Positions 3,610 to 60,152 of a DNA stretch of 64,000 nt are shown here, one piece after another (the first letter of the stretch is position 1; each line of letters begins with the position of its first letter). The DNA is from Candidatus Aenigmatarchaeota archaeon (GTDB taxonomy: Archaea > Aenigmatarchaeota > Aenigmatarchaeia > GW2011-AR5). The stretch covers positions 133,856 to 197,855 of the forward strand of contig JACPAG010000001.1 in assembly GCA_016180945.1 (NCBI GenBank), read 5' to 3'. Made by a program: the position numbers and the translations under genes. The notes beneath the pieces were generated by a model. The model saw only the letters and a program-made list of their open reading frames with translations, had not been told where the DNA came from and ran no database searches.

Positions 3610-3656
3610 ATAATATGGGATACGACACGTGTTAAGCGAAGCGACACGTGGGGTAT
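3610..3656 (+). repeat. A-type hairpin element (TAC/GTA variant) directly before an ATG
   Basis: ATAATATGG-GATAC-GA-CACGTGTT...GACACGTG-GG-GTAT-ATG. Confidence 0.7.
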
Positions 3657-4439
3657 ATGGTAGAAAGGGTAACGATAACAATACGTTCTGACGTCCTGAA
3701 GAAGATAGACAGGATGGTAAAGGATAACGATGCCCGCAACAGGTCCCACGCAATAGAGAATCTGATTTCAAAAGTGCTGGACGATATCGACACGGCGCTC
3801 ATTCTTGGCGGCGGGAAAGTACAAAAGCCCATGATACCGGTGCATAGCAAGCCCGTGCTGGAACATCAGATAAATATGCTGAAGAAAAACGGCATAAGGA
3901 ACATCATAGTTTCTGCTGGTGCCAGCATAAAGGAATATTTTGGAAGCGGAAAGAAGTATGGCATAAACATAACGTACGTCCTTGAGAAAGAGCCATGCGG
4001 CACGTCAGGCGCCCTGTACCTTTCAAAAGGGCTTCTTAAATCAACGTTCGCCGTCCTGAACGTCGACACGCTTATGGAGCCCGATATAAAAGAAATGCTG
4101 GAATTCCACAGGAATAATAAGTCCATGGTCACGATGCTGCTTGTTACGGCCGACAAAACAGACAATGCTGGAGTAGCAGTCATGCGTGGCAATCACGTGG
4201 TGAGTTTTGTTGAAAAGCCCTCAAAATCAAAATCAAAGCTTGTGAATGCCGGCTTTTACATTTTTGAGCCGGCTGTACTCAAGTTAGCCAAAAGAAAAGG
4301 CGCGATAGAGGACGTAATATTCCCGAAACTGGCAACGAATAATAAATTATGCGGGTTTCTCCACGACAAGCCGGTATTCGATGTCGGAACACCCGAAGGT
4401 TATGGCAAAGCCCAGAAAGAATGGAAGGACGTTTATTGA
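3657..4439 (+). CDS. Ribbon-helix-helix (CopG-like) domain fused to an NDP-sugar pyrophosphorylase domain
   Basis: N-terminal ERVTITI...IDRMV...NRSHAIE; ILGGG...KPMIPV and VNAGFY; divergent from the heptose cluster. Confidence 0.75.
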   Translation: MVERVTITIRSDVLKKIDRMVKDNDARNRSHAIENLISKVLDDIDTALILGGGKVQKPMIPVHSKPVLEHQINMLKKNGIRNIIVSAGASIKEYFGSGKKYGINITYVLEKEPCGTSGALYLSKGLLKSTFAVLNVDTLMEPDIKEMLEFHRNNKSMVTMLLVTADKTDNAGVAVMRGNHVVSFVEKPSKSKSKLVNAGFYIFEPAVLKLAKRKGAIEDVIFPKLATNNKLCGFLHDKPVFDVGTPEGYGKAQKEWKDVY

Positions 4440-4440
4440 T

Positions 4441-5080
4441 GGTAACGTTCCGGATTTTACGAAGATGGTTTCAGTCAGTTTGAGCGCACGAAGTAAGCCG
4501 TAAAATCCATGAAGCCTATATTGAAGTATTGTCAAAAACGAGGAGCGAAGCGACGAAGCGTTAGGTTTCGGGCGACACCATAAAGCTTATAAATGTTACT
4601 AAATAGTAATACTAGTGAGTTTATGAATACAATTCTAGGGAACCATGTCCAAGAAGACTTGAGACAACTTGAAAGAAAATTACCTGGCCGTGGTACAGCA
4701 ACCTATCAACTTGCTAGACATGTAGCAGATTATATTTGGCCTAGCATATCACCAGAAGATTTTGTTCATGCATACTTCTTAGCGTTGGGAGATTTACAAA
4801 CTGCCGGGGACAGAAGAAGTACAAAAACCCAGAGACCACCACACGAATTAGTCGGTTGCCCGGCAGAGCTGTACGCTGTTTTAGCACTGGACATACCACA
4901 AATAGCAGATGCTATTTTCCCGGAAGATTTTGCTGGAGAAGTAAAAGAAGTTTTTAGGGGTGGCAGATATAAGATACCATACTAATCCCAATGAAATATT
5001 TGCCCGAAGCACAATGTCACTTAACTCCATATTATGCGTTATGTTTGACTTCTAACGCGCTGATTCTTGTGTTATGCGAA
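4441..5080. mobile_element. Single-gene cassette 1 with attC-like hairpin flanks
   Basis: Right flank 5002-5080 matches 41878-41956 (30/33 identical core plus GTTATGCGAA); left flank shares its architecture with 41046-41199. Confidence 0.6.
4623..4985 (+). CDS. Hypothetical protein (cassette 1 cargo)
   Basis: ORF with its own TATA-like box (CTTATAAAT near 4587); no recognisable motif. Confidence 0.65.
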   Translation: MNTILGNHVQEDLRQLERKLPGRGTATYQLARHVADYIWPSISPEDFVHAYFLALGDLQTAGDRRSTKTQRPPHELVGCPAELYAVLALDIPQIADAIFPEDFAGEVKEVFRGGRYKIPY

Positions 5081-5116
5081 AAATATGACTTTTATTAACC
5101 GCTGTAATAAGTAATT

Positions 5117-5734
5117 ATGCGACTCGTTTCCAGGCTGGAAAAAGACGGCGTTTCACGTCTTATTCTTGACACGCTTGCAATGTCTGTCAGAAAAATAGAG
5201 CCGTTTTACGATACGCTGGAAATAAGCTTCGGCGGCAAGAATTCCGTAAGGATAACCGACTCTGCCGTTTTTATTTCCCTCGACAAGTCAAACGACTTTT
5301 TGATGGAGAGAGACGAAAAAGCAATAAAGGCCCTCGTTCTCAAGTTGGTCGCGCTCGCCGGAACCAGGAGATTAGCCATAAACGTGCCGTTTCTGGAGGA
5401 AATATTGTCGGACAGGGAGCTCATAAAAGACGGCTTCGGAGACGAGCTGTTTTACTACTATTATCTCTCTCTTGCGAACGCCGAAAAAAGCGCCGGCTTT
5501 GAAAAATTTCTTGAAATCAGCATCCCGTGGCTGAGCTTTGCCGGCCTGGATGATTCCTATTCGTCCTTTCTGTTTAACCTTTCAAAAATCTTCAATTATC
5601 GAAAAGAGTTTGAATCCGTGACAAAGGATTTTTTCGAAAAGGTCAGAAAAATGAAAAAAACAGACGTGCAGGCAGTTGCCAAGGCCTATGTCTCTCTTGT
5701 CAGCAAATACAATTCCTCTATAGAGGCTAGTTAA
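5117..5734 (+). CDS. Hypothetical protein
   Basis: 205-aa ORF. Confidence 0.7.
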   Translation: MRLVSRLEKDGVSRLILDTLAMSVRKIEPFYDTLEISFGGKNSVRITDSAVFISLDKSNDFLMERDEKAIKALVLKLVALAGTRRLAINVPFLEEILSDRELIKDGFGDELFYYYYLSLANAEKSAGFEKFLEISIPWLSFAGLDDSYSSFLFNLSKIFNYRKEFESVTKDFFEKVRKMKKTDVQAVAKAYVSLVSKYNSSIEAS

Positions 5735-5747
5735 CAGGGGGAAGATT

Positions 5748-5874
5748 AAAATGGGATACGACTGGAAGGAGCAAAAATTATAATATGGCGATCGACTTTC
5801 GTGCAGAAGCCAAGAGGCTTCTGACGAATCAAGAAAGCAGGGCTTTCTTTATTTTGCCGGAGCAAAAAGGGGAT
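5748..5874 (+). repeat. Tandem A-type elements with a nested B twin-hairpin (5800-5853)
   Basis: Removing 5800-5853 restores TCGAC-TTTTTGC-CGGA-GCAAAAA-GGGGAT as at 27554; ATACGACTGGAAGGAGCAAAAATTATAA recurs near 60042. Confidence 0.8.
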
Positions 5875-6681
5875 ATGCAGATAACAAAATATAAATGGGA
5901 CAACTGGGAGCCGCATTTAGTCCTGAAATCGGGCAATGAAACCAGGAAAATCCGTCTTTTCGGCAATCACTCGTTCGTGCTGGGCCAGAAGACATGCACG
6001 GGATTCTTTTCCGGCGGCAAAAGTTATGAATGCCCGGGAAAGAGAAAGCTGGACTACGGCCAGCAGTGCAACGAATGCAAAATCCGCGACCTCTTCGCGC
6101 TCTGTATGCAGTGCACCGGCGAGAAATGCATAAACGAAAAAAGGCGGGCGGAGTGCGAGAAAGAAAACTACTTTATCTACCTGGCGGCATTCGATTCCCT
6201 GCTCAAAGTAGGCATCTCATACGAATACCGCTTTTTAGAGAGGCTTGTCGAGCAGGGCGCGGATTTCGGCGCCAAGATAGGACGCGTAAAAGACGGGCTT
6301 GCAGTCCGGGACATAGAACAGAAAATAATGCAGAATCTGGACATAGTAGACCGCGTAAGGGGGGCTGAAAAACACAAGATGCTGTTTTGCAACCCCAACA
6401 CAGCAGCAGCCAATATTTCCAGGGCAATCGCGGCCCTTAGGAAAGATTTCAGCCAGTATCTCATCAGGCCGGAAATATACGATATGCGTTCTTACTACAG
6501 GCTGCACAACGTTTTCCTGAATCCGTCTGCAATGGCGATAAAGGACAACACGGAACTGTCCGGCGAAATCGTGGCAGCAAAAGGCAACATTTTTGTTCTC
6601 AGGAAAGGCGGCGAATTTTTCTCGATTAACGCCCATGAGATTATAGGGCGTGAGATTCTGGGCAACGGGCTCTCTATTTAA
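5875..6681 (+). CDS. DUF2797-like Cys-rich protein
   Basis: Cys clusters, IYLA...KVGIS and EQGA; ATG follows the GGGGAT of the repeat, so the first 30 codons of the track ORF are repeat-derived. Confidence 0.7.
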   Translation: MQITKYKWDNWEPHLVLKSGNETRKIRLFGNHSFVLGQKTCTGFFSGGKSYECPGKRKLDYGQQCNECKIRDLFALCMQCTGEKCINEKRRAECEKENYFIYLAAFDSLLKVGISYEYRFLERLVEQGADFGAKIGRVKDGLAVRDIEQKIMQNLDIVDRVRGAEKHKMLFCNPNTAAANISRAIAALRKDFSQYLIRPEIYDMRSYYRLHNVFLNPSAMAIKDNTELSGEIVAAKGNIFVLRKGGEFFSINAHEIIGREILGNGLSI

Positions 6682-6702
6682 AAATTGACTGCTTATTGTT
6701 AT

Positions 6703-6894
6703 TATAATATGGCAATCGACTCGCGGAGTGTAGCGACCAAAAATTACACGCGAAGACCAAAGGTCTTCGGTGCATCGAAGAACTGTTGACAGTTCTTCGA
6801 ATGTAAAATGGCGCTCGACTTCGCGCAAAATACAGAGTATTTTGGCGACTCAAGAAGGCTTTGCCTTCTTCGAGTTGCCGGAGCAAAGGGGAGT
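6703..6894 (+). repeat. Composite of two A heads and two B twin-hairpins (6746-6803, 6822-6875)
   Basis: Removing the B units restores AAAAATTA|TAAAATGGC and CTT|TGCCGGAGCAAAG. Confidence 0.8.
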
Positions 6895-7548
6895 ATGAAC
6901 GTTTTCAAGCACATAGCCGTTTTTAACGGCATAGGCTACGATTCCAACGTTTTCCTGCTGGACGGGGAAATTCTTGTCGACACGGGTTCCGGTACCAGGT
7001 TTCCGATTTTGAAAAAAGGAATAGGGGAAAAATCAGACGCCTCTGAGATAAAAACAATTGTCAATACGCACTGCCACTTTGACCATTGCGGCGGCAACAA
7101 GAAATTCCGTTCGTGGCTGGGCGCGGAAATAGCCGCCCACAGGCAGGACAAGCCGTTTATCGAAAGCGGCATCAATACGATGGCAGAGCTGTTCAAGGAA
7201 AAGCCGCTGGTATCGACTGTCGACAAGGAACTGAAGAACGGCTCCAGGCTTAAAACGGCAAATTTCTCTTTTGAAGTTATAGCCACTCCGGGCCACACTC
7301 CCGGATCCGTATGCCTCTACGAGAACGAGCACAAAATACTTGTTTCAGGCGATACGCTGTTCGAGGACGGCATCGGCCGGGCAGACCTGCCGGGCGGCAG
7401 CAACGCGAAGCTTTACAACTCCTTGGAGAAGCTTTCCAGGTACCATATAAATTATCTTCTTCCGGGTCATGGCAATGTAAAAGTCGGCGGCGTGGATTTT
7501 CTCATAAAACAGATGCTGTCCGCAATGAACAGGGACCTGAAGATTTAA
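6895..7548 (+). CDS. MBL-fold metallo-hydrolase (glyoxalase II-like)
   Basis: THCHFDH, TPGHTPG, GD and PGHG motifs. Confidence 0.85.
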   Translation: MNVFKHIAVFNGIGYDSNVFLLDGEILVDTGSGTRFPILKKGIGEKSDASEIKTIVNTHCHFDHCGGNKKFRSWLGAEIAAHRQDKPFIESGINTMAELFKEKPLVSTVDKELKNGSRLKTANFSFEVIATPGHTPGSVCLYENEHKILVSGDTLFEDGIGRADLPGGSNAKLYNSLEKLSRYHINYLLPGHGNVKVGGVDFLIKQMLSAMNRDLKI

Positions 7549-7568
7549 AAATATTTTCAGTTAATTAG

Positions 7569-7662
7569 TAAAATGGCACTCGACTCAAGCAAAGACCAAA
7601 AGGTCTTTGATGCATCAAAGGCTTCTACAGAAGCCTTTGCTTGAACCGGAGGTTAGGGGAGA
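7569..7662 (+). repeat. A element with nested B (7586-7643)
   Basis: Removing B restores CTCGA-CTAACC-GGA-GGTTAG-GGGAG. Confidence 0.8.
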
Positions 7663-8130
7663 ATGAAGAAAAAGAAAAAAGAATACACGTTCTTTTGGGA
7701 GCAGCCTCTTGAGCAGGCAAAAGAGATAAAGGACCTTTTCAGCGAGCCGTTCGAGTTCAAGTTTACAGTCCCGAGATTCACGTTTCCGGAAATCAGGTTC
7801 GAGAAGACAATACCGGTCAATGTCGCAGAAACAGGCACAGAAATAATAATCAAGGCGGAAGTGCCCGGCTACAAAAAGAACGAGATAAGCATCAATGTGA
7901 CGGAAAACACGATAGAAGTTTCAGCCTTCAGGAAGCAGGAAAAAACAGAAAAAACAAAAGGCGTCTACAGCCAGGAAAAGAGCGCAGGCGCGGTGAAAAG
8001 AGCCTTCACTTTACCGGCAAAGGTCGACCCTGCAAAGGCCGAAGCAAAGCTGGAAGAAGGGCTCCTCATTGTTGTTCTCCCAAAACTTTATCCTGACCAG
8101 AAAAAAAGAAGGCGGCTGGAGATTAAGTAG
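7663..8130 (+). CDS. Small heat-shock protein (Hsp20)
   Basis: AEVPG, RAFTLP and EGLLIVVLPK motifs; C-terminal LEI. Confidence 0.9.
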   Translation: MKKKKKEYTFFWEQPLEQAKEIKDLFSEPFEFKFTVPRFTFPEIRFEKTIPVNVAETGTEIIIKAEVPGYKKNEISINVTENTIEVSAFRKQEKTEKTKGVYSQEKSAGAVKRAFTLPAKVDPAKAEAKLEEGLLIVVLPKLYPDQKKRRRLEIK

Positions 8131-8271
8131 GTTGTTATTTCAAAATTCTTGTTACAATGTACCCGACATATGCTATCAGAACTGCCAAAAGTGAAATTAC
8201 ATAGCTAAGTCCGCTTGCAGGATAGAAAATAATTTCGTAGACTATTAATAAAAATAACGATTTAAACTTGA

Positions 8272-9297: not shown

Positions 9298-9366
9298 GAA
9301 AGATACATCAGGCGTAACCTTTAAAAGCCAAATCAGTTTTTAATAGTTTTTTGAGAATTCTATTGG

Positions 9367-9630: not shown

Positions 9631-9633
9631 ATG

Positions 9634-27540: not shown

Positions 27541-27582
27541 TATAAAATGGCAATCGACTTTTTGCCGGAGCAAAAAGGGGAT
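27541..27582 (+). repeat. Minimal A element before cdc48
   Basis: TATAAAATGGCA-ATC-GA-CTTTTTGC-CGGA-GCAAAAAG-GG-GAT then ATG. Confidence 0.85.
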
Positions 27583-30500
27583 ATGGAAGAAGATCTTAAA
27601 CTGAAGGTCGGCGAACTTACCGAAAGGGGCGACTTTGGCCGCGGCATAATCAGGATATCCGCAAAAGACATGAAGCGGCTGAGCATAACTGAAGGCGACA
27701 TCGTCGAGATGGAGGGCAAGCGCAAGACGGCCGCTATAGCCGTCCGTGCTTATCCCGCGGACGTTGGTCTTGATATCATAAGGATGGACGGCCTTGAACG
27801 AAGGAACTGCGGGGCCGGAATAGGAGAGCCGGTAAAAATAAAGAAGGCCGACGCCAAAGAGGCGAAGGCCGTGACAATCGCGCCTGCCCGCAAAGGCATA
27901 GCAATCCATATGGGCGGCAACCTGCTGAAGCAAAATCTTCTCATGAGGCCTCTGGTTACCGGAGACATAATTATCCCGAATCCTGTTGTCCAGGACAGGA
28001 GAAACCAATCTACGTTGTTCGAGCAGTTTTTCGGCATGGATTTCGGAGACTTTTTGTTCACCCCTTTCGGCGAGGAAAAATTCGTTGTTGTCAGCACCGA
28101 CCCTAAGGGCATCGTCCGCGTTACTAGGGCAACGGACGTAGAATTGCTGCCGCAGGCGACTACCCCGCTGGAAGAAAAAAATATACCGGACGTCACTTAC
28201 GAGGATTTGGGCGGCCTGCACGACGAGATACAGAAAGTCCGCGAGATGATTGAGCTGCCGCTGAAGCATCCTGAGCTTTTCGAGCGGCTTGGTATAGAGC
28301 CGCCAAAGGGGATTTTACTCCACGGACCGCCTGGCTGTTTGACAGGCGAAGCGCTTGTCGCTATAGAAGACGGACGGCTTGTAAGAATAGGTGAGCTTGG
28401 TAAAAATCTTGTTCCTGGAATATACGTAGCGGATTTACCAGTCTATCCGCCTGCCCATGCAAAAGCTATTCATGTTTACGACGTTCCTGAAACAGTGGAG
28501 GTCATTACTAAAAGCGGAAGAAGATTAAAAATGACTCCTAACCATCCTTTGATGACCGACAAAGGATGGGTGGAAGCTGAGAAGCTAAAAATCGGGGATA
28601 ATGTAAAGATATTTAATTGGCTTCCGAATCCACAGAATTATGTTCCAACAAACTTTGTGCTCAACGAAAAGAGACTTGTTAACGAAATAAAGGTTCCAAA
28701 AATATGGGATGAGAAGCTTGCAGAACTTATTGGCATATTTGTTGCAGAAGGCAGTATAGATGCCAGAAGAATAAAATTCACAATACATAGAGACGAAAGC
28801 GAGTTAAGAGAACGGATTGTTTCTCTGCTGCATGAAATATTCTCTGTTGATGTAACCGAAAGAGTTGGAATAACGAAAGCCGTTAGAAGAATAAGGGCTG
28901 CAAATAGAGGCATATGGGACTTTTTCAAACCTTTATGGACAAAAGAAAAAGTAATACCGCAAGAAATACTGCTTTCGCCCAATGCAGTGGCTTCAGGCTT
29001 CCTCAGGGGACTATTTGAAGGAGACGGCTCTGTCGTCAAGAAAAACAGGCATTTTGATAGGGCAGTAACCCTGAAATCAAAATCAAGGCAACTTCTTGAA
29101 GAAGTGCAGGTCCTTCTTTTGAGATGGGCGATAAGATCCTCTATTTACTCGTATAAAGAATTGTATGGCGAATCTAGCGTATTAAAAATCAGAGGACGGG
29201 ACAATCTGAAGAAGTACAAAGAAAACATAGGGTTTATTTCTAAAATAAAAACGGAAAAACTCGTAGAACAGCTTTCAACATATAAAAGGAAAACGCCCAA
29301 TGAAAATTCTGAATTCGAGCCTGTAAGGGAAGTCAGAAAGGTCAACGGCTGGGAAAGGGTTTATGATTTTGAAGTCCCAACAACACATTCATTTTTCAGC
29401 AATGGAATACTTTCGCATAATACAGGAAAAACATTGCTGGCCAAAGCCGTTGCCAACGAAAGCGGCGCGCGCTTTATAGTTATAAATGGCCCTGAGGTAA
29501 TGAGTAAATTTTACGGCGAGAGCGAGGAAAATTTAAGGAAAGTTTTCGAGCAGGCCGAGAAAAATGCGCCAAGCATAATTTTCATAGACGAAATCGATTC
29601 AATCGCGCCGAAGCGTGAAGAAGTCCGCGGCGAGGTGGAAAAACGCGTAGTGTCACAGATGCTTACCTTGATGGACGGATTGAAGAACAGGGGCAAGGTT
29701 ATTGTTATCGGAGCTACAAACATACCGAATTCTTTGGACCCGGCATTAAGAAGACCGGGAAGATTTGACCGTGAGATAGAACTGGGAGTGCCGAACAAAA
29801 TCGGCCGCAAAGAGATTTTAGAGATACATACAAGGGGCATGCCGCTGATGAAAGACGTCGAGCTGGACAAGATAGCCGAGATTACTTACGGCTACGTCGG
29901 CGCTGACATAGCCGCATTGTGCAAGGAAGCGGCCATGCACGCCCTGCGGCGCGTCTTGCCGGATATGGGAATAATAAAAGAAGACAAGCCTATTCCCCAG
30001 GAGGTTTTGAAAAAACTTGTTGTCAACAAAGAAGACTTTGATCATGCGCTCAAGATGGTCGAGCCGTCTGCGATGAGAGAGGTCTTGATAGAAATCCCGA
30101 ACGTCAAATGGGACGATATCGGCGGCTTGGAAAATATTAAACAGTCTTTGAAAGAAGTTATCGAATGGCCTCTGAAATACGGCGAATCGTTCAAGCGGCT
30201 CGGCATCAGGCCGCCAACAGGCGTTCTATTGTACGGCCCGCCGGGCTGCGGCAAAACCCTCCTGGCCAAGGCCGTCGCCAACGAATCCGGCGCAAACTTT
30301 ATTTCTGTCAAGGGACCCGAGCTGCTGTCAATGTGGGTCGGCGAGAGCGAACGGCATGTCAGGGACGTATTTAGAAGAGCGAAGCAGGTCGCACCGGCAA
30401 TAATATTTTTCGATGAAATAGACGCGCTGGTACCGCGCCGCGGATACGGCACAGACAGCCAGGTGACCGAACGGGTTGTTTCACAACTGTTAGGCGAGAT

Positions 30501-30936
30501 TTCCGGGCTGGAAGATTTGCACGATGTAATAGTCATAGCCAGCACAAACAGGCCGGATATCATAGACCCCGCATTGCTTCGTCCTGGTAGATTCGACCGC
30601 CAGGTCCTGGTCCCGACGCCTGATGAAAAAGCAAGGCTTGAAGTGCTCAAAGTCCATACAAGGGGGATGCCGCTTGCAAATGATGTGAATATCGAAAAGC
30701 TGGCAAGGGAGACAGGAGGATTTTCCGGAGCAGATCTGGAATCTCTCGCCCGCGAAGCAGGCATGCACGCCATGAGAAAGGATACAGAGGCAAAAGAAGT
30801 CACGGCCCGGGACTTCAGCCAGGCGCTGAAGGAGATAAAGCCGTCGGTCAGCGAAGAGATGAACCAGTTCTACGAGTCGATGATAAAGAAAAGAAAGTCG
30901 CAGAAAATGGAAGAAGAGATTCTGTACACTGGTTAA
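27583..30936 (+). CDS. cdc48: CDC48/VAT AAA ATPase containing an intein
   Basis: Two AAA modules ([19 protein letters not shown]). Confidence 0.95.
28336..29421 (+). mobile_element. Intein with LAGLIDADG endonuclease in the Cdc48 D1 Walker A motif
   Basis: GPPG|CLTG...SHN|TGKT; [14 protein letters not shown] and [10 protein letters not shown] motifs. Confidence 0.93.
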
Positions 30937-31807: not shown

Positions 31808-31955
31808 TTGACTGCAACTCCCCTTTTTGCTGCTGCAAACATTCGAATGACTTAAATGAGGAGAGCCATTTTATTTCTTTTCCGCAAGCGCTTTTCGGAA
31901 CAACTAGACGCACAGCTGTGCGTCAGCCCATTCAACGAAAAGGGCCTAAAGGAGC
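31808..31955 (-). repeat. Mosaic of hairpin modules (A-like, C and tRNA-Leu-intron-like) between convergent genes
   Basis: C palindrome at 31907-31924; AAAAGCGCTTGCGGAAAA shared with tRNA-Leu intron 2; AAAATGGC-TCTC...GCAAAAAGGGGAG. Confidence 0.7.
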
Positions 31956-33171: not shown

Positions 33172-34083
33172 TTATTTTGTAGTTACTATAGGTTCTTCTT
33201 CTACTATAATCGTGTGTTCATATTGCGAAACAAGTCCGTTCGCAACCTCCTTCAGCGGCGCGTAGTCGTAAATGACGCCTTTTTCCCGCAATTCTTTTAA
33301 TGCAATCCGTATTTTGAACAGCGAATCCGGCAAACCAAAGCTTGCTGCTTCCTTGTCCATCAGCCATCTTTCCGCAAAAGGCAGTCCGTTGAACCTTTGC
33401 ACGAAATCTATGATTTTTCGTGCGTCCTGGTTCCTGACGGGTCTTGATTTTAGAAACATGAATATCAGTATCGGTTCCGTTTCCTTTATTCTTCCCGCGC
33501 CCGCCGTGGCAAAAGGCTCTATTGCTATCACCTGGCCTTCCGATAGACGTTTCAGCCCGTTAAATCTTACATTCGGAATCTGCGGCTCTGCGTGCAGATG
33601 ATAATTTTCAAGCCCGTGGCCTGTAAGGTTTGAAACCGGATTGAAGCCGTAGCCGCGTATGGTTTCCTCTATTTTCGAAGAGATGTCAGAAATAAGCGCG
33701 CCCGGCTTTGCAACGGCAACAGCATTTTCCAATGCCGTTTTAGACGCTTCTGAAAGTTTCTCATGGGCTTCGCTAAACGATATTGTGTAAGCAGTGTCAG
33801 CCACGTACCCGTCTACATGAACACCCAAGTCAACCTTTAGTACGTCGTTTCTTTTTAGCGTCGTTTCATCCCCTTTGTACGGCGTGTAGTGCGCGGCCAG
33901 TTCATTCAGCGAAAGGTTTAACGGAAAAGCCGGATGCCCGCCCTTTTCTTTTATCATGCCTTCAAGTTTCCCGGCTATCTCAACAAGCTTTATTCCCGGT
34001 TTTATGATGTTTCGTCCTTCTTCCATCACTTCAGAAGCGATTTTACCCGCCCTGATGTATTTTTCTTTTATCTCGTCGTCCAT
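33172..34083 (-). CDS. map: Type II methionine aminopeptidase
   Basis: AAHYTP, DLGVHVDGYVAD, GHG, IEPF and QYEHT motifs. Confidence 0.95.
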   Translation of the reverse strand: MDDEIKEKYIRAGKIASEVMEEGRNIIKPGIKLVEIAGKLEGMIKEKGGHPAFPLNLSLNELAAHYTPYKGDETTLKRNDVLKVDLGVHVDGYVADTAYTISFSEAHEKLSEASKTALENAVAVAKPGALISDISSKIEETIRGYGFNPVSNLTGHGLENYHLHAEPQIPNVRFNGLKRLSEGQVIAIEPFATAGAGRIKETEPILIFMFLKSRPVRNQDARKIIDFVQRFNGLPFAERWLMDKEAASFGLPDSLFKIRIALKELREKGVIYDYAPLKEVANGLVSQYEHTIIVEEEPIVTTK

Positions 34084-34124
34084 ATCCCCTTTGCTCCGGC
34101 AAAGTCGATTGCCATATTATTATA
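34084..34124 (-). repeat. Minimal A element before map
   Basis: TATAATAATATGGCAATCGACTTTGCCGGAGCAAAGGGGAT then ATG. Confidence 0.85.
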
Positions 34125-37225: not shown

Positions 37226-37267
37226 TAATATGGGATACGGCTACGCTACGTAGTAGCGGAGGGGTAT
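37226..37267 (+). repeat. A element (TAC/GTA variant) inside the pyr operon
   Basis: TAATATGG-GATAC-GG-CT-A-CGCTAC-GTA-GTAGCG-G-AG-GG-GTAT. Confidence 0.65.
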
Positions 37268-51591: not shown

Positions 51592-51712
51592 ATCCCCTCA
51601 CCAACAACTTGACGCACCGCTGTGCGTCGATTTGTTCCGAGTCGATCGCCACACGCGAAGAACCAGAGGTTCTTCGGTGCATCAAAAGACACTGTCTTTT
51701 GATTGTTTTATA
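51592..51712 (-). repeat. A element carrying a C palindrome (51611-51628) and an inverted B (51652-51705)
   Basis: Removing B restores TATAAAA|TGGCGATCGAC; ends GAGGGGAT then ATG. Confidence 0.8.
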
Positions 51713-53233: not shown

Positions 53234-53245
53234 TTTCGAAACACC

Positions 53246-53530: not shown

Positions 53531-53626
53531 TCGTCTTCTGGAAACTCCAGAAAGCTTTGCTTTCTGCGAGTTAAACCCAAGGGCGTTTCTTTATCCCCTA
53601 ATTTCGTTAGTCGATAACCATATTAC
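53517..53626 (-). repeat. A element (53592-53626) followed by a B twin-hairpin (about 53517-53571)
   Basis: TAATATGGTT-ATC-GA-CTAA..TTAG-GG-GAT; CTC-G-CAGAAAGC-AAA-GCTTTCTG-GAG...CAGAAGAC-GAAT-GTCTTCTG. Confidence 0.75.
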
Positions 53627-54361: not shown

Positions 54362-54571
54362 TGGGCCGGGCAGGAATCGAACCTGCAGCCTTCGCGGTGT
54401 AAACGCGACGTCATACCAATTTTGGTTCCCAAAATACAATTCACATTAGTTCTTTTGGGGTTCACCAAGACCTTTTCGAACACATTGACGCAACGAAGAC
54501 TGACGCACTGCTGTGCGTCTATTTGGGTTGCGTCGGTTTGTTCAAAGGGATTGGTACTAGACCACCAGCCC
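54362..54571 (-). tRNA. tRNA-Val(TAC) with a ~138-nt D-arm intron (about 54421-54558)
   Basis: GGGCTGG/CCGGCCC acceptor, TCGCG-TTTACAC-CGCGA anticodon arm, TTCGATT; intron junctions uncertain by a few nt. Confidence 0.85.
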
Positions 54572-54574
54572 AAG

Positions 54575-54692
54575 CGCTGGGAGAGAGATTTGAACTCTCG
54601 TGTGCTTTCGCACACAGGTTGTTTACAAGTCGTTTTCCGCAGAAAAGGGCTGTAGCAAACCTGCGCCTTGGACCAGACTTGGCTATCCCAGC
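54575..54692 (-). tRNA. tRNA-Ser(GCT) with a 32-nt 37/38 intron (54621-54652)
   Basis: Long variable arm, G73, BHB central helix TTGC/GTAA. Confidence 0.9.
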
Positions 54693-54756
54693 AATAAAAC
54701 TTTATATATTACCGAAGCATATTAATAAAAGATTTATCTAAGACGAAGGTGGTTTG

Positions 54757-55050
54757 ATGGCTATAAGTGTCAAGAATTTCTCGGATATGGCGCGCAAGGA
54801 CGTCTTCACCAGCAGGGGTATCTATTGCGGAAAGGTGGTCGATATCGGTCTGGACTTTGACAAATTCCGGGTCAAATCGGTTGTCGTGGACGCCGTAAGG
54901 GGGTCGCACTTCGCATCCATTGTCGGCGACAAGAAAGGCGTTGTTGTGCCCTATGCAATGGTCCAGTCTGTGGGCGATATCGTGTTAATCAAGCACGTGC
55001 CTCTGGCGGCAGTGGAGACCGAGACGGAAGAAGCGCCTGTCGAGGCCTGA
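54757..55050 (+). CDS. PRC-barrel domain protein
   Basis: KDVFTSRGIYCGKVVD...VPYAMVQSVGDIVLI. Confidence 0.8.
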   Translation: MAISVKNFSDMARKDVFTSRGIYCGKVVDIGLDFDKFRVKSVVVDAVRGSHFASIVGDKKGVVVPYAMVQSVGDIVLIKHVPLAAVETETEEAPVEA

Positions 55051-55125
55051 TTCTCTTTTGCTCAATAAACGCTAGAAAGTAGGCGTGCCAATAGATTATC
55101 ATTCAAGGAAAAATAAATAATAATA

Positions 55126-55192
55126 ATAATATGGCACTCGACTTGAAACAGACTGACGCACAGCAGTGCGTCTAGTTATTGAGGGGAGGTAT
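55126..55192 (+). repeat. A element with a nested C palindrome (55155-55172)
   Basis: TAATATGGCA-CTC-GA-CTT...GAG-GG-GAG. Confidence 0.75.
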
Positions 55193-55516
55193 ATGCCAGC
55201 CGACAAAGAAAAGCCCGTCGAAGAAAAGGCAAAGCAGCTGATGGACCTGAGGACGCTGATGCTGACGTCGATAACGTCAGCCCTGGCTTTGGTCGTCGGC
55301 TTGTTCTGGAACGACGCCATAAAATCTGCCATCGAAAAGCTTGTCCCGCAGGGCGGGGACGTTGCCGCAAAGTTTGCGTCAGCAATCATAGTAACTATCA
55401 TAGTTGTGGTGGTTGTTTACCTTCTTTTCCGCGCGCAGCGGATAGCAGCAGGGCAGCTAAGAGAAATGGCAGAATTGAAAGATAAATTAAGGAGAAGGAC
55501 GAAAGGAATAGTATAA
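55193..55516 (+). CDS. Small membrane protein (DUF5654-like)
   Basis: ITSALALVVGLFWNDAIK. Confidence 0.7.
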   Translation: MPADKEKPVEEKAKQLMDLRTLMLTSITSALALVVGLFWNDAIKSAIEKLVPQGGDVAAKFASAIIVTIIVVVVVYLLFRAQRIAAGQLREMAELKDKLRRRTKGIV

Positions 55517-55645
55517 GTATGGAAAAAAGTAAGGAAAAGGCAATGGTTCTCCTTTCGACTTAGCACATCCCCAGCCTACTTACCTTTTCCCTTTGCTTCT
55601 GCTTATTAATATTCTCAGTCAAGCAAATAATAACAACTTTGCAAT

Positions 55646-55766
55646 GCTCCCGTCGTCTAGTCCGGTCAAGGATAGGAGCCTTTCGCTTTTGTATAATATG
55701 GCAGTCGACTTTTGCCATAGCAAAAGGGGATAGCTTCGGACGCGAGTTCAAATCTCGCCGGGAGCA
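55646..55766 (+). tRNA. tRNA-Glu(TTC) with a 46-nt 37/38 intron (55686-55731) consisting mostly of an A element
   Basis: GCTCCCG/CGGGAGC acceptor; GGAGC-CTTTCGA-GCTTC anticodon arm after splicing. Confidence 0.88.
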
Positions 55767-56956
55767 TCATACTCAAAACTTAGATAGTAGTTCTTCTCAC
55801 TAGCAGCACAATGGCTGGGTGGCTACAATTGTAGTCACCCAGAGGCAAAACTACTTATATTTGTAGTCACCTATAGTTATTATGCATATAGAAAAAAGGC
55901 GTGTCGGCAAGAGGACAAAATACTATCTTGCCCATGCTCTCAGGGACGGCAGGCAAGTCAAAAAAATAAGGGTTTATTTGGGTGCTGATAGCAAAGCCGT
56001 TAAGGGGAGGAGGGCTTCTGCCGAGCAAATAATCATGGAAAGAATTAAGGCATATGAAATAATTTCCGATCCTTTTCGCCATGCGCTTAATACAAGGGAA
56101 ATTGAAGATATCAAGTCCCTGGAAGCAAAGGGCGGCATAAGAATAAAGCATCTAAGCGAAGATGATTGGAAAACATTTATAGAATCCTTCGTTTACGACA
56201 CAAATGCCATCGAAGGGTCTTCCGTCACATTTACAGAAGTAACAGAAATACTGGAAAAGCAGGAGTGGCCCAAGGAGAGGGAGAAATGGGAGATATCGGA
56301 AACGTACGGCGTGAGGGATGCCATACAGCTGATAAGAAGCACTAAGGAGCATTTGTCATTGGAGCTCATGAAAGAGCTTCATAATGTCTGCTTCAGGAAT
56401 TCCAAGCCGTTTGCAGGCAAATTCCGTGAGAAAGGTCAGGAAGTTGCCGTTGTCGACGGGCAGGGAAGGGTAATTCATAGGGGCGCCCCTTCAGGCATGG
56501 TCGTCAAGCTTCTCAAGGACCTAGTTTCATGGTACAGCAAGAACAGGAGAAAATATCCTGCGATTGTCCTGGCAGTCGTGGTGCATAATCAGTTCGAGAC
56601 TGTACACCCTTTTGCTGACGGCAATGGACGGGTCGGAAGGCTTTTGCTCAACAATATTCTTCTCCGGCACAACAAGCCGCCGGTGAATATAGAACTGAAA
56701 AACAGGAAGAAATACTATGCAGCGCTGGGAGAATATCAAGAAAATGGAAATATAAGGCCGATGATAGAGCTTATACTCAAGGAATACAGGAATTTGAAGA
56801 AACTGCTGAAGAAATGACGCCAAAGGCGTCTGTCTACAGTTGAATACAGCCCATGAAAATGTAGTCACCTAGCACAGTTCTCTTACCGGCATAAATCCAT
56901 TGTTGTTCAGCCAAAAGTGGGCGCCTGTTTTTTCATCCGGGGTTCGCCGGGAGCAT
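55755..56956. mobile_element. Fic islet at the tRNA-Glu 3' end
   Basis: TCGCCGGGAGCAT at 55755-55767 is repeated at 56944-56956. Confidence 0.6.
55882..56817 (+). CDS. Fic-domain protein
   Basis: HPFADGNGRVGR and TNAIEG motifs. Confidence 0.9.
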   Translation: MHIEKRRVGKRTKYYLAHALRDGRQVKKIRVYLGADSKAVKGRRASAEQIIMERIKAYEIISDPFRHALNTREIEDIKSLEAKGGIRIKHLSEDDWKTFIESFVYDTNAIEGSSVTFTEVTEILEKQEWPKEREKWEISETYGVRDAIQLIRSTKEHLSLELMKELHNVCFRNSKPFAGKFREKGQEVAVVDGQGRVIHRGAPSGMVVKLLKDLVSWYSKNRRKYPAIVLAVVVHNQFETVHPFADGNGRVGRLLLNNILLRHNKPPVNIELKNRKKYYAALGEYQENGNIRPMIELILKEYRNLKKLLKK

Positions 56957-57712
56957 TTATTTTTTCATCATCTTTTCAAGATACTCTTTGTCTTTTATCG
57001 TCTGCTCAATCGGATTTCTTTTCCCTTCAAACTCGACGACAAGATAACCATTATAATTCTGTTTCTTCAGCAGTTTTATCAGCTCAGTCCACGGCACTTC
57101 TCCTTTTCCCAGCGGCGGGAAAGAAAACAGTTTTATGGAATCTTTAGCATGGACATGGACAAAATATTTGCCCAATTTTGTGGCGGCCTCTAATGTATCC
57201 ATACCAGAAAGGTTGAAATTCGCCGGGTCGAAATTCAGCCGGAGTTTCGGAATTTCTTTGAGCAGCGCCGAAACATCGCCTATCGTGCTTATTGCATGCA
57301 GCGGGCTGTTTTCCAGAGCAATTGTTATTCCATTTGCCGCGGCATAGTCGACAGCCCTTGCCATATTTTCTATCATCGCTTGTTTATCGGCCCCTTTTCC
57401 GGAATGAGTGCAAATTATGTTAATCCCCGCGGCATGCGCATATTCCACTACTTCTCTAAATCGTTTCATCTTACTCTTCTCAAAAAAATTCGTGTATCCG
57501 CCCAAGGAAGTGATGGATAAGTTCAATTCGTCTGCCAAGTCGCTTAATTGTTCTGGCCCTAAAGTCATCTGCTCGGCGTCTTCGCACATGACCTGCACGC
57601 CTTCAAATCCCATAGAAGAAATTTTTTCCAGCGCCCGTTTTGTATACCTGTATCTTTTGATAGCGCCTAGTTTAGCCAGCCCCATAAAAGAATAAGTTCC
57701 TAATTTAGCCAT
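56957..57712 (-). CDS. Sugar phosphate isomerase/epimerase (TIM barrel)
   Basis: LEN, FDPAN, HAKD, G.G.V and VEFE motifs. Confidence 0.8.
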   Translation of the reverse strand: MAKLGTYSFMGLAKLGAIKRYRYTKRALEKISSMGFEGVQVMCEDAEQMTLGPEQLSDLADELNLSITSLGGYTNFFEKSKMKRFREVVEYAHAAGINIICTHSGKGADKQAMIENMARAVDYAAANGITIALENSPLHAISTIGDVSALLKEIPKLRLNFDPANFNLSGMDTLEAATKLGKYFVHVHAKDSIKLFSFPPLGKGEVPWTELIKLLKKQNYNGYLVVEFEGKRNPIEQTIKDKEYLEKMMKK

Positions 57713-57909
57713 GCTTGATGGAAACGGCAGGAAGTTGAAGTTGTAGTCCAGGCATCCGAGTTTCATGGCTTTAATAAAGACAACAAGTTTTAAATCTAAG
57801 AATTCCATCCTCTTTTGCATCTCGGAGTGTTGTAGTTAGAGTGTTGAATCTAGGGTGATAGGTAGGTTTAAAAAACGCCGCCCAGCATTAAGATATAGAG
57901 GTGAATAAA

Positions 57910-57945
57910 ATGGAAGCATCAATAAAGTTCAGAAAGCGGTTTTAA
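57910..57945 (+). CDS. Candidate 11-aa micropeptide MEASIKFRKRF
   Basis: GAGGTGA SD and TTTAAAAA box near 57867. Confidence 0.3.
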   Translation: MEASIKFRKRF

Positions 57946-58041
57946 TGTGGTAACGAAACGAATGAATGAGTGATTTATTCATTGATTTATTCATTTATTG
58001 ACTTCCTAATCCTTATCCATACTTCTTCTCTACAAAGAAAA

Positions 58042-58326
58042 TCAAACGTCCTGAAGCCTTACCTTTTTCACAACGATATAATTTTCTACGTAGTTTAATG
58101 TCGCCTTTGGCGCAATTCTGGCTATTTTTTTCTTTGCCGTTCTTTGGTCCAGATGCTGGTTCTCTATCTTAACTATATCCTTTTTGCCCAGCGTTTCGCT
58201 GTCAATATTCATCAGTATGGATACGACGCCTTTTGGTTTCAGTGCTTCTACCACTTTCGTTGCTTTGCCGGCTGTTATGTGGTCTATCACTGTGCCGGCT
58301 TCTATATCAGTAATTCGTTTTTCCAT
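58042..58326 (-). CDS. pyrI: Aspartate carbamoyltransferase regulatory chain, allosteric domain only
   Basis: GTVIDHI, KKDIVKIE and APKATLN; no Zn-binding C-terminal domain. Confidence 0.8.
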   Translation of the reverse strand: MEKRITDIEAGTVIDHITAGKATKVVEALKPKGVVSILMNIDSETLGKKDIVKIENQHLDQRTAKKKIARIAPKATLNYVENYIVVKKVRLQDV

Positions 58327-58439
58327 GATAAAAATACGCCAGAAAAGGATTAGAAGATTAGATAAAAGATTTTATCATGGAATAGGTTTCGGTGATAAGT
58401 TTAAAACTAATAAATTAGTAAAAGCAATTGCGGGAGCCA

Positions 58440-58617
58440 GCGGGGATAGTAATTGTTAATGGAATGTTAATAATTACACCCATCGCCTAGCCTGGTCAAT
58501 GGCGCAAGGTTGAGGAAGCCCTTTTCCGCTTCGGCGCAAAAGCGCTTGCGGAAAATATTAGGGCTGTAAAGGCCTTGTTCCTTAGTGGATTCGGGAGTTC
58601 AAATCTCCCTCCCCGCA
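58440..58617 (+). tRNA. tRNA-Leu(GAG) with two introns: 8/9 (58448-58483) and 37/38 (58516-58571)
   Basis: GCGGGGA/TCCCCGC acceptor, CAAGG/CCTTG anticodon stem, long variable arm; both inserts fold as relaxed BHB motifs. Confidence 0.85.
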
Positions 58618-58685
58618 TGAGAAGAATTGTATATTGTCAAAGCCCGTTCGAAAGCTTCTTAAATGTATATACATAGTATATACGT

Positions 58686-59471
58686 ATGACAAGCGTGGTT
58701 AAGGCGGTCAAGAGGTACGGAAACTCGGGAGGCGTTTACGTGCCCAGCAAATGGATAGGCGGGAAAGTAAAAGTGGAGTTGATAGAGGAGCCCCTGGACC
58801 CTAGGCATGTTCTGGCCAGAATACCGCTGGAGCACGTGATCAGCGCGATTTTATACGGCTCTTACGCGAGAAAAGAGTCGCTGGAAGGCTCGGACATGGA
58901 CATATTGCTGGTTGTCGACGACGACTCCAAGATAAGCATAGCGCCGGAGCTGAAACAAAAATACGATATACAGATAAAGAGCCTGAGAAATCTCAGAAAT
59001 GCCTTGGTACACGACCCGGTTTTTTACAAAATAATCAAGGATGAAGCTGTAGCTATTTTAAATCATCAGTTTCTCGACAGCTTAAAAAAAGAGGCGCCAA
59101 AAACAATTGATATAAAGAAAAGAATTGAACTGGCCGAATCCTCCCTGAACATAACAAAAGAAATACTAAAAATTGGCGGGGATATTGCAAATCTGGTTTA
59201 CCCGCTTATAATGCGCCTGAAAGAGATTCTTCTGATAGAATATTTCCTTGAAGATAAGAAATATTCGACTAAGGCACTGAAGCACGAGATTCTGGATTGT
59301 GGAATAACCTCGAAAGAATTTTCTCTGCTGATGGATATATACAGAACATCAAGGAATGGCAAAAGGATTCCAAAAACCCTATTGTCAACAGATACAATAA
59401 CAAAAATAACATTGCTCCTGGAGAATAAGATACAGTATGTCAAGCAAAAAGCGCGCGAAAAAAGGGATTGA
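58686..59471 (+). CDS. AbrB/DUF2080-like domain plus minimal nucleotidyltransferase (TA-associated)
   Basis: YGNSGGVYVP and LYGSYAR...SDMDILLV. Confidence 0.8.
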   Translation: MTSVVKAVKRYGNSGGVYVPSKWIGGKVKVELIEEPLDPRHVLARIPLEHVISAILYGSYARKESLEGSDMDILLVVDDDSKISIAPELKQKYDIQIKSLRNLRNALVHDPVFYKIIKDEAVAILNHQFLDSLKKEAPKTIDIKKRIELAESSLNITKEILKIGGDIANLVYPLIMRLKEILLIEYFLEDKKYSTKALKHEILDCGITSKEFSLLMDIYRTSRNGKRIPKTLLSTDTITKITLLLENKIQYVKQKAREKRD

Positions 59472-59643
59472 GTCCTTGGAGAAGCAGATAGAACTGCATA
59501 AAAGCAAGCTAAAGGCGGCAGAAGAAAGCGGAAACATCGGCTTGGCTAATTACTATGAAAAGGAAATAGAACATTTCGAGCAAGCAAAGGAAAAGCTGGA
59601 GCGCAGAGCAATGCCGAGGGCGAAAAGGAAAAAGATGCCCTGA
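59437..59643 (+). CDS. Small basic coiled-coil protein, probable partner of the MNT gene
   Basis: Overlaps the MNT stop; KGIESLEKQIELHKSK. Confidence 0.6.
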   Translation: MSSKKRAKKGIESLEKQIELHKSKLKAAEESGNIGLANYYEKEIEHFEQAKEKLERRAMPRAKRKKMP

Positions 59644-59794
59644 ATGTGCTATCCGAATATTTATATATAGGGGCAATCGCAATAGTTGAATTATAGTGAA
59701 ACCAGAAAAGAATCGGTATATTAATTTCTGGTTTTACATATAGTCAGCAAGGATGTAATATGCCGTTTATTTCCTTGCATGACTATAGATAAGT

Positions 59795-60013
59795 ATGGCA
59801 TTCCATCTTTCTGTGAACGTGCACAGTTTTCCGAAGTGCAGCAGGTGCGGCAACGACATGGCGCTGGTACTGGTTTCGGAAACGGAAACAAGAATCGGCG
59901 AAGGAAAATCAGGCGTCTTCAGCAGCTCGCCCAAGTCCACGCAGTCGGAAGAGGATACGGACAAGGCATTCTTCGGCTGGAAATGCAGCTGCGGCAATAG
60001 TATTACCGCATAA
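59795..60013 (+). CDS. Small Zn-ribbon protein
   Basis: CSRC...WKCSCG. Confidence 0.6.
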   Translation: MAFHLSVNVHSFPKCSRCGNDMALVLVSETETRIGEGKSGVFSSSPKSTQSEEDTDKAFFGWKCSCGNSITA

Positions 60014-60032
60014 GACATTTTTATTATGATTA

Positions 60033-60152
60033 ATAATAGGAATACGACTGGAAGGAGCAAAAATTATAAAATGGCTATCGACTCAAGCAAAGACCAGAGG
60101 TCTTTGATGCATCAAAAGACTTTGTCTTTTGATTGTGCGGAGGCAAGGGGAT
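60033..60152 (+). repeat. Tandem A heads with nested B (60084-60135)
   Basis: Removing B restores ATC-GA-CTTGC-GGAG-GCAAG-GG-GAT. Confidence 0.8.

Follow-up and report, generated by a model that had tools for sequence, protein, structure and literature searches.

A dispersed hairpin element anchored at start codons and tRNA genes in a small archaeal genome

What is the short hairpin that recurs directly before the start codons of unrelated genes in a very small archaeal genome, and how did it come to be there? The question is raised by a stretch of 64,000 nucleotides (nt) from a Candidatus Aenigmatarchaeota archaeon (C8:133856-197855 of host genome assembly G000), the whole of which is referred to here as the window. 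The archaeal host assembly comprises 987,615 bases in 9 contigs, with 45% G+C and an estimated completeness of about 84%; genomes of its relatives measure 0.4-1.2 Mb, sizes that suggest a DPANN-like organism. A preliminary description of the window reported about 14 copies of the hairpin, here called the A element, and proposed either a mobile hairpin resembling repetitive extragenic palindromes (REPs) that brings a Shine-Dalgarno-like tract, or a protein-bound translational control element. We give roughly an even chance to a related but different reading, namely, that the A element is a mobile 'leader cassette', non-autonomous and provided with a TATA-like box, which genomes gain and lose as DNA. 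Judging from its sequence, the element probably gives the gene behind it expression signals.

That a dispersed hairpin exists, as first described, is borne out by its abundance and by its pairing. The string ATAAWATGG occurs 13 times in the window versus 1.71 expected, and the maximum over 100 shuffles is 5. A genome-wide pattern search yielded 141 matches, on which the counts of arm types and positions below are based. The covariance model R1, built from a gapless alignment of 28 copies of 31 nt, has 120 matches in the 987,615-base genome at E ≤ 0.1, 12 of them in the window. In this alignment 99.6% of 252 cells pair, versus 75.2 ± 2.1% after shuffling (0 of 500 shuffles reach the observed value) and 41-58% when the partner is slid, and five of nine pairs change on both sides. 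In the model-fitted alignment of the R1 matches, 98.1% of 887 cells pair and seven of nine pairs covary, with a shuffle range over the alignments of 75-77%. Complementarity also appears where it is not required: at the first GGGGxy within 45 nt downstream of a core, the triplet containing xy complements the 5′ arm in 77 of 83 cores. At larger spacing it does so in 31 of 42 (45-100 nt) and 12 of 25 (beyond), the misses being mostly nested units. The exact 12-mer core is found 97 times in the host and 0-3 times in each of 40 relatives, which is the level of the backwards control. A gathering-threshold search of the window against Rfam 15 returned rRNA and tRNAs only, with no match at the element, and an E-value search of positions 3500-8200 gave two chance C/D-box matches (E 0.54 and 4.9), both outside the elements. 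Among the matches listed in a pattern scan of other genomes' contigs, there are only chance single matches in unrelated bacteria. A literature search, with subscription journals and supplements outside its reach, found no description of such an element.

The unit has a fixed order: an A-rich run (positions -12 to -8), an A/T box, ATGG, 2 nt, a 3-nt arm, GA, a variable hairpin, GG and the complementary arm. Among the genome-wide pattern matches the A/T box ends in TAAT or TAAA (T-4 in 87%, A-3 in 82%, A-2 in 84%); it belongs to the inserted unit. The A of ATGG is present in 81% of copies and its T, G and G are invariant; a C follows in 83%, then one variable base. The 5′ arm is 3 nt ending in C and is followed by GA and then C, whereas the 3′ foot is preceded by G and then GG. 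Covariation of the basal stem, claimed from the window copies, holds throughout the genome, where all four arm combinations first noticed are seen: ATC/GAT (61 of the 141 matches), CTC/GAG (51), TAC/GTA (14) and GTC/GAT (2), besides TGC/GCA (3) and TCC/GGA (1). The apical hairpin has 4-8 bp or is much longer. The shortest units measure 29 nt from ATGG to the end and the commonest length is 31 nt; in about 40% of copies the apical part holds one or more additional hairpins, bringing the length to as much as about 240 nt, and copies of the A element are nested within one another. Loops of the simple units are mostly closed by C-G, GAA (28) and GGA (11) standing out among 98 distinct hairpins. 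In minimum-energy folds the basal helix is extended, positions 5-6 (C, then A or G, in about 81-83%) pairing with the U and G of the start codon, and the folding z-scores of copies range from -2.4 to -4.1. A kink-turn, the L7Ae site, consists of a 3-nt bulge followed by tandem sheared G-A and A-G pairs. It was rejected for the A element, which has no bulge and in which GG, not GA, stands opposite the 5′ GA.

Other short hairpin repeat families are present genome-wide, namely, GACGCA..TGCGTC (about 34 loci), GAAGAA..TTCTTC (about 39), GAAAGC..GCTTTC (about 32) and AAAGAC..GTCTTT (about 21). They are often nested in the A element or stacked before it, for example at window positions 5800-5860, 6720-6800 and 55150-55180. 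Two non-palindromic linker modules (GGAGCGGAGCGACC-like, 16 copies, and CGACTGGAAGGAG, 20 copies) have the same strand bias as the A element, on which see below. Two more repeat families, each with 4-5 copies of about 200-250 bp that share 84-95% identity, are also present. One is found at C2:21404-21654, C2:155070-155313, C4:154179-154431 and C4:167369-167555, and the second at C4:79967-80178, C2:147936-148142, C7:173885-174091, C7:148304-148500 and C2:29657-29835.

Adjacency to start codons, noticed in the window, extends to the whole genome. Using crude ORF calls made without a gene finder, we found a same-strand ATG ORF of at least 50 aa within -3 to +40 nt after 114 of the 141 pattern matches, at offset +1 in 51 cases and 0 in 16. 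The genes concerned are indeed unrelated, since the ten scanned in the window belong to different families (NTP_transferase, DUF2797, metallo-beta-lactamase, Hsp20, Cdc48 with an intein, PyrK-like, DUF5654, Nudix, TPP_enzyme_C and peptidase M24). The remaining copies stand in tandem before another copy, before a tRNA or within a tRNA intron, and copies no longer adjoining an ATG look decayed. The element's own ATG reads in frame and uninterrupted into the gene for 19 of 99 copies, which substantiates the earlier warning of false N-termini. A coding leader or mini-ORF was nevertheless rejected: the frame of the element ATG is open to the main ATG in 61 of 99 copies versus 69 and 65 in the other frames, and the main ATG falls in frames 0, 1 and 2 relative to the element ATG in 34, 15 and 50 copies, respectively.

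The second setting is the tRNA gene. In the copy on C7 between 5S rRNA and a tRNA, the last G of the unit is the first base of the tRNA. The window holds a tRNA-Glu(UUC) gene (55645..55768, +), for which ARAGORN, run with introns, places a 46-nt intron at 55686-55731. A 34-nt copy with GTC/GAT arms (55698..55731, +; R1 match L187:9541-9590) ends at its 3′ splice site and thus forms most of the intron (34 of 46 nt), as had been noticed. Read from the sequence, the 3′ arm and G-run of this copy can pair with the intron 5′ end and anticodon-loop bases 32-35 into a bulge-helix-bulge (BHB), in which C32-U35 face the G-run, the bulges are C36 G37/first intron base and A,T/A38, and the outer helix is TTTTG with CAAAA. 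A second intron copy lies in a tRNA on C2, whose intron ends at or within 3 nt of the unit. Two 3-nt bulges, a 4-bp helix and flanking helices can be drawn for the tRNA-intron copies only. At gene-upstream copies a BHB was rejected: the foot is a symmetric GA/GG 2x2 loop and the second strand is absent, an upstream repeat of the stem arm being found in 11 of 81 copies and at the needed place (-10 to -12) in three, two of them tRNA-linked.

The A element is gained and lost between related genomes. We scanned 60 other genomes of the same family and order with R1 at E ≤ 0.001; these genomes are 56-97% complete, so that absence of a gene from them is weak evidence. Matches were found in 16 of the 60 and are patchy, with 30, 14, 12, 6, 4 and fewer per genome, and one genus includes two genomes with 30 and 14 matches alongside three with none. 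A metagenome scan added true copies in eight contigs from related organisms with 65-88% nucleotide identity to the host, the other five of the 13 loci (L122, L125, L127, L128 and L130) being chance matches. One of these contigs, L126, is syntenic with the ribosomal-protein region of the host at C7:135-145 kb (65-78% nt identity); this interval has at least nine R1 matches in the host versus two in L126. At orthologous junctions that are tight in L126, such as tgaatt|ATGAAA, the host has a whole unit including the A/T box between the same flanks. At one orthologous junction the element is present in L126 only. In L121 a copy lies in a leader where the host has none, with the upstream TATA-like box conserved in both, and in L124 a copy stands where the host has a different hairpin. 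The preliminary description had called for scanning a covariance model over the genome and its relatives and for empty orthologous sites; the former gave the matches above and the latter exist in both directions.

Copies in the relatives retain the design of the unit. At 51 places there are further arm types (CTA/TAG, TGC/GCA and TAC/GTA with GAT replacing GAC), while ATAAT-ATGG, GA and GG are identical, loops are GRA and an ATG usually follows after 0-4 nt. Within the 200-nt flanks a recognisable ATG ORF lies at -3 to +15 in 29 of 72 R1 matches, many matches being tRNA-linked or tandem. In several low-copy genomes the unit either occupies the canonical intron of tRNA-Arg(UCU) or of tRNA-Lys(CUU) or stands immediately before a tRNA. 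In G010 the 3′ end of a copy lies within 0-5 nt of the first base of a tRNA. The intron copies in relatives have a degenerate A/T box (TGTAGA, CGTAAA), and intron copies have a loop GCCA or GCCAT complementary to the 5′ ATGGC. In the tRNA-Arg, tRNA-Lys and tRNA-Glu introns the purine 3′ end pairs with pyrimidine bases 32-35, giving a normal BHB with the exon. The element family is older than the host genus and tRNA-linked. A different arrangement is seen in relative G050 (L216, G050:C26:9583-10094; and L215), which has a head-to-tail array of identical repeats of about 61 nt, each made of the unit and a 26-nt spacer, with ATG TAA directly after the foot.

The copies are also strongly biased with respect to the chromosome, being 5-15 times more frequent on one DNA strand per contig. 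R1 matches on the plus and minus strands number 14/3 on C2, 6/1 on C3, 23/4 on C4, 2/29 on C7, 21/4 on C8 and 8/2 on C9, versus a roughly balanced 114/91, 21/8, 92/69, 55/86, 90/99 and 23/21, respectively, for ORFs of at least 120 aa. Among genes without the element, the GC skew at third codon positions (GC3 skew) is -0.054 on the favoured strand (n=375) versus +0.056 on the other (n=335); its sign is consistent in 21 of 21 windows of C2, C4 and C8, whereas C7 is noisy, with three of six windows of each sign. Element-bearing genes make up 66 of 454 on the favoured strand versus 10 of 374 on the other (odds ratio 6.2, p 8e-10, overstated since genes cluster), and their third-position G+C content (GC3) is higher, 0.554 versus 0.494. 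The preliminary description was silent on this bias, as it was on the A/T box within the unit, on the age and tRNA link of the family and on its non-coding nature.

What the unit could bring to a gene depends on the expression signals of the host. Upstream of genes for tRNA, 5S RNA and signal recognition particle (SRP) RNA, a CTTTAAAT-like box ends 22-24 nt short of the mature 5′ end and, as the box lies that close, tRNA leaders would be very short. In 154 element-free genes with an unambiguous ATG, the region from -30 to -23 is T-rich and then A-rich, with a weak GGTG at -9, suggesting that leaderless mRNAs are common in this host. The A/T box of the element resembles both the RNA-gene boxes and the -30 to -23 signal of these genes. 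The proposed Shine-Dalgarno-like tract is doubtful. The 3′ end of 16S rRNA is GGATCACCTCC; GGGGAT matches GGTGAT at five of six positions, whereas GGGGTA, GGGTAG and GGGGCA do not match. The G-run of the element lies at -7 to -4 from the ATG, only 2-3 nt before it, versus the GGTG peak at -9 in other genes. A Shine-Dalgarno role is unlikely because the last three bases vary together with the covarying stem and because GGTG lies 2-3 nt farther from the ATG than this run.

In the leader-cassette reading, the A element would spread by a single-strand, hairpin-dependent process tied to one replication strand, a route suggested by the strand bias together with the GNA-capped hairpins. Insertion beside a start codon would be tolerated thanks to the unit's own upstream signals, that is, a box resembling the TFB-recognition element (BRE) and TATA box and a purine-rich foot before the ATG. 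Copies persist almost only directly upstream of start codons and in gene orientation, with a few before tRNAs or in tRNA introns. The box would place the start of transcription in the 3′ half of a minimal unit, leaving a leader of a few bases; in tRNA-intron copies, which need no promoter, it is degenerate. The structure, copy number, position, orientation, insertion polymorphism, patchiness and strand bias of the element are observed, whereas its promoter activity, the single-strand DNA route and the role of the transcribed hairpin are inferred.

Several points weigh against this cassette. With a transcription start about 23 nt past the box, the RNA of genes at the head of a transcription unit would lack the 5′ half of the hairpin. 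The nested copies, about 40% of the total, would have long structured leaders, yet their ATG abuts the foot all the same, which a foot-directed RNA process would explain better. The A/T box is kept in 15 of 18 operon-internal copies and in 30 of 43 copies with a divergent neighbour, an equal degree of conservation that gives no sign of selection for promoter use. That ATAATATGG, GA and GG are conserved from genus to genus points to a role other than selfish spread alone. The strand bias could reflect which genes occupy the favoured strand, given their higher GC3. Neither the strand of the element nor the sign of the GC3 skew flips at the only orc1/cdc6 gene (C8:72330-72623), so the favoured strand could be either leading or lagging. 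Signs of a target-site duplication are confined to a 3-nt ambiguity at one clean empty site. Finally, the host assembly, about 84% complete as it is, has no repeats longer than 510 nt, none being of insertion-sequence size, no match to TnpB (PF07282) and, of Y1 transposases, only a C-terminal fossil (29 aa scoring).

The main rival takes the A element as a transcribed element that defines 5′ ends, and we hold it possible, though clearly the less probable of the two. Its foot, that is, the 3-bp stem and GA/GG loop, would be recognised by an endonuclease or other protein, and a cut on its 3′ side would release leaderless mRNAs from operons, tRNA 5′ ends or tRNA 3′ exons, by analogy with mitochondrial tRNA punctuation. 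The apparently mostly leaderless host, as read from the -30 to -23 signal of the 154 genes, is in keeping with this, as are RNA genes that start about 23 nt after their box. So is the position of the element's 3′ end, 0-5 nt from start codons, from the first base of tRNAs and from the 3′ splice sites of tRNA introns. The adjacency of foot and ATG is kept whatever is nested apically, and it is the copies away from an ATG that decay. G-T is tolerated over A-C by 5 versus 2 among the 98 distinct hairpins, too few to weigh. We know of no nuclease with such foot specificity. Gene-upstream copies cannot form a BHB, and the distance from foot to boundary varies from -2 to +5 for ATGs and over 0-2 nt for splice sites, which means that exon pairing, rather than the element, determines the splice site. 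A transcribed foot explains neither the conserved A/T box nor the chromosome-strand bias. The leader cassette and the transcribed foot are not exclusive. A further reading, in which the unit is an RNA 'punctuation mark' whose portable foot directs an endonuclease cut before a start codon or tRNA body and which itself spreads, tRNA introns included, is in our estimate unlikely. Such a mark would allow an archaeon with mainly leaderless translation to cut leaderless messages and mature 5′ ends out of longer transcripts.

A somewhat smaller chance is given to a REP-like element mobilised in trans by an IS200/IS605-type Y1 transposase (HUH/RAYT-like, RAYT being the REP-associated tyrosine transposase) acting on a single-stranded hairpin. 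Here the orientation bias of replication-strand type, the GNA triloops and the lack of a clear target duplication fall into place, and Y1 genes occur in 18 of the 60 relatives. The Y1 fossil of the host, of IS200/IS605 type (C4:20707-20793, +; L134:1501-1587; 21.2 bits, E 1.8e-4, with a Y..NQ end), is followed by a GC-rich hairpin and, 72 nt downstream, by a co-oriented atypical copy with TCC/GGA arms. Against this, none of the 14 intact Y1 loci in the relatives has an R1 match within about 1.5 kb, and the four other genomes richest in the element (30, 14, 12 and 6 matches) have no Y1 match, bearing in mind their completeness. The transposase flanked by the motif that the preliminary description had envisaged was thus not found. 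The palindrome ends lack a GTAG or CGTC tag; copies carry CGAC after the arm, mostly as TCGAC (TAGAC or ACGAT in relatives), and ATGG before it. They lie at gene starts rather than at 3′ ends or as dimers, and their tandems are head-to-tail. Of the REP-like mobile hairpin first proposed, mobility therefore stands, given presence/absence, patchiness and nesting, and likeness to REPs in the strict sense is not supported, given the missing tag, the position at gene starts and the absence of a flanked Y1 or RAYT gene.

Control of translation, the other explanation in the preliminary description, is improbable. The hairpin would hold the G-run and part of the start codon in its basal helix, opened or closed by a protein or by temperature, in a regulon of about 110 genes. 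The folds that pair positions 5-6 with the start codon, the z-scores given above and the conservation of GA, GG and ATGG across genera agree with it. The genes, however, are functionally unrelated, and gain and loss between close relatives would be odd for a regulon; copies also stand before tRNAs and in introns, the strand bias is left unexplained, and the G-run, lying too near the ATG and ending in variable bases, matches the 16S 3′ end poorly.

Least probable is descent from a tRNA intron that moved into mRNA leaders, from which the tRNA splicing endonuclease would remove it (as in HVO_1309): the tRNA-Glu intron is similar to gene-upstream copies over nearly its full length, BHB-forming copies lie in tRNA-Arg(UCU), tRNA-Lys(CUU) and tRNA-Glu(UUC) introns of several genera and there is a precedent for a BHB intron in a 5′ untranslated region (5′ UTR; PMC7714728), but gene-upstream copies have a symmetric 2x2 loop instead of two 3-nt bulges and no second BHB strand, a return route from RNA to DNA is not known here, and descent between intron and gene copies could run either way.

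In the window, with coordinates converted from R1 loci L184-L187, 12 of the roughly 14 copies first listed are full copies by both the pattern script and R1, whereas those at 6703 and 31818 are only partial. A 41-nt TAC/GTA copy at 3615..3655 (+; L184:17458-17514) precedes the ATG of the NTP_transferase gene at 3657, and a 90-nt ATC/GAT copy with nested extra hairpins at 5785..5874 (+) precedes that of the DUF2797 gene at 5875. The partial copy at 6703..6800 (+), not an R1 match, has the A/T box and the ATGGCAATCGAC 5′ core without a matching 3′ foot; other hairpin modules follow the core, and it stands in tandem before the copy at 6808. The latter (6808..6893, +; 86 nt, CTC/GAG, nested hairpins; L185:651-752) precedes a metallo-beta-lactamase-fold gene with its ATG at 6895. 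A similar 89-nt CTC/GAG copy with nested hairpins at 7573..7661 (+; L185:1416-1520) precedes hsp20 (ATG 7663). The 36-nt ATC/GAT copy at 27547..27582 (+; L186:1390-1441) abuts the ATG of cdc48 at 27583, and its own ATG, in frame with the gene, creates a false N-terminus (ORF 27547..30936). This cdc48 (27583-30933, +) contains an intein with a LAGLIDADG domain (Intein_splicing at residues 262-613, LAGLIDADG_3 at residues 470-550). The degenerate copy at 31818..31874 (-), below the R1 threshold, has the A/T box and ATGGCTCTC, has lost GAC and has kept the 3′ GGGGAG.

Further along, a 32-nt ATC/GAT copy at 34084..34115 (-; L186:7935-7982) precedes a methionine aminopeptidase (M24) gene with its ATG at 34083, and a 37-nt TAC/GTA copy with 5′ GG replacing GA at 37230..37266 (+; L186:11073-11125) precedes the PyrK-like gene (ATG 37269). 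The 61-nt ATC/GAT copy at 51592..51652 (-; L187:5443-5519) starts with GTGG, is without the A/T box and precedes a gene for a thiamine pyrophosphate (TPP) enzyme (ATG 51591) similar to the beta subunit of pyruvate oxidoreductase (POR; TPP_enzyme_C). A minimal 29-nt ATC/GAT copy at 53593..53621 (-; L187:7444-7488) is separated from the next ORF by other hairpin modules. The 58-nt CTC/GAG copy at 55131..55188 (+; L187:8974-9047) has a nested GACGCA..TGCGTC hairpin and precedes the DUF5654 gene (ATG 55193). Beyond the tRNA-Glu copy described above, an 82-nt ATC/GAT copy with nested hairpins at 60071..60152 (+; L187:13914-14011) precedes the Nudix gene, whose ATG at 60151 overlaps its last two bases.

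The RNA genes of the host have peculiarities of their own. The 16S rRNA gene is heavily interrupted: it occupies window positions 61422-64000 and continues beyond (C8:195277-199917), with an Rfam match of 630 bits over 1766 nt. At window positions 63100-63260 the sequence departs from 16S after the ~900 region, and a 204-aa ORF lies at 63212-63826; the true 3′ end of the gene, GGATCACCTCC, is at C8:199907, about 4.6 kb from its start. Introns are long or multiple in many tRNAs (40-177 nt for about 20 of 29 ARAGORN calls, some of which are doubtful), examples in the window being 54575-54692 (-) and 55645-55768 (+), and ARAGORN did not resolve the tRNA after the 5S gene on C7. A candidate RNase P RNA scores 49 bits against a cut-off of 84 (C8:206173-206482).

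In this very small archaeal genome, one and the same portable unit has taken the place of the upstream region of about one gene in 8-9, among them most genes of a ribosomal-protein cluster whose counterpart in a relative is compact. Should the unit carry a promoter, a 30-nt mobile element would have rewired transcription units on a large scale, and this in archaea, where little work has been done on small non-autonomous elements (PMC10969869). If it is instead a processing or binding signal, it would represent a new way of making leaderless mRNAs. Under either reading, one sequence family connects tRNA introns, tRNA leaders and mRNA starts. For annotation, the element creates false N-termini and its nested hairpins inflate intergenic regions. 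The pronounced strand bias gives a way into the mechanism by which the element spreads.

How does the A element compare with known systems? Mycobacterial interspersed repetitive units (MIRUs) are short repeats between the genes of operons, lying in the direction of transcription, and are said to carry small ORFs overlapping the neighbouring stop and start codons. The A element is likewise inserted between genes in the direction of transcription; unlike in MIRUs, its frame is no more open than others. Measured against miniature inverted-repeat transposable elements, it has one hairpin per unit, terminal complementarity of 3 nt only and a target duplication of at most 3 nt (one site). Many of its apices are GC-GAA-GC or GC-GGA-GC and thus resemble GCGNAGC, described as an extraordinarily stable DNA mini-hairpin (PMC13037366). 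GCGNAGC is a physical motif and not a genetic element, but such apices hint that the hairpin may matter as single-stranded DNA.

For the tRNA-intron aspect, the closest counterpart is the BHB intron in the 5′ UTR of Haloferax HVO_1309, which, like the BHB intron of crenarchaeal cbf5, lies outside tRNA and rRNA. It shares with the A element the character of a short structured insert in an archaeal mRNA leader, tied to tRNA-intron biology (PMC7714728). These known introns are single-copy and conserved with a full BHB, whereas gene-upstream A copies are multi-copy, polymorphic and cannot form a BHB. In behaviour the A element is closest to Correia elements and REPs. Correia elements (Correia repeat enclosed elements, CREE) of Neisseria are small, non-autonomous, present in more than 100 copies and mostly immediately upstream of genes; their promoters can activate transcription of the adjacent gene, and RNase III cleaves transcripts in which they are included (PMC10969869). 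The A element shares the small size, non-autonomy, copy number above 100 and position upstream of genes. Correia elements are, however, bacterial, about 100-200 bp long and equipped with terminal inverted repeats and sigma-70-type promoters, whereas the A element is archaeal, starts from 29 nt plus the A/T box and has a single imperfect hairpin with a fixed GA/GG loop. Unlike them, it lies right against the start codon, shares the gene's orientation in every case and occurs in tRNA introns too. REPs, as characterised in PMC3733652, are 20-40-nt palindromes with a GTAG/CGTC tag, located near the 3′ ends of ORFs and often forming inverted dimers. The A element resembles them in its short one-sided conserved tag, variable stems, copy number varying between relatives and suspected single-strand DNA mobilisation (PMC3733652). 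It differs in its tag ((T)CGAC and ATGG), in its place at gene 5′ ends as co-oriented singles or tandems and in its A/T box. The A element lacks the tested defining features of REP/RAYT systems, kink-turns, BHBs (outside tRNAs) and mini-ORF repeats. In kind, it belongs with the small palindromic mobile repeats, among which its unusual trait is its anchoring to start codons and tRNA genes.

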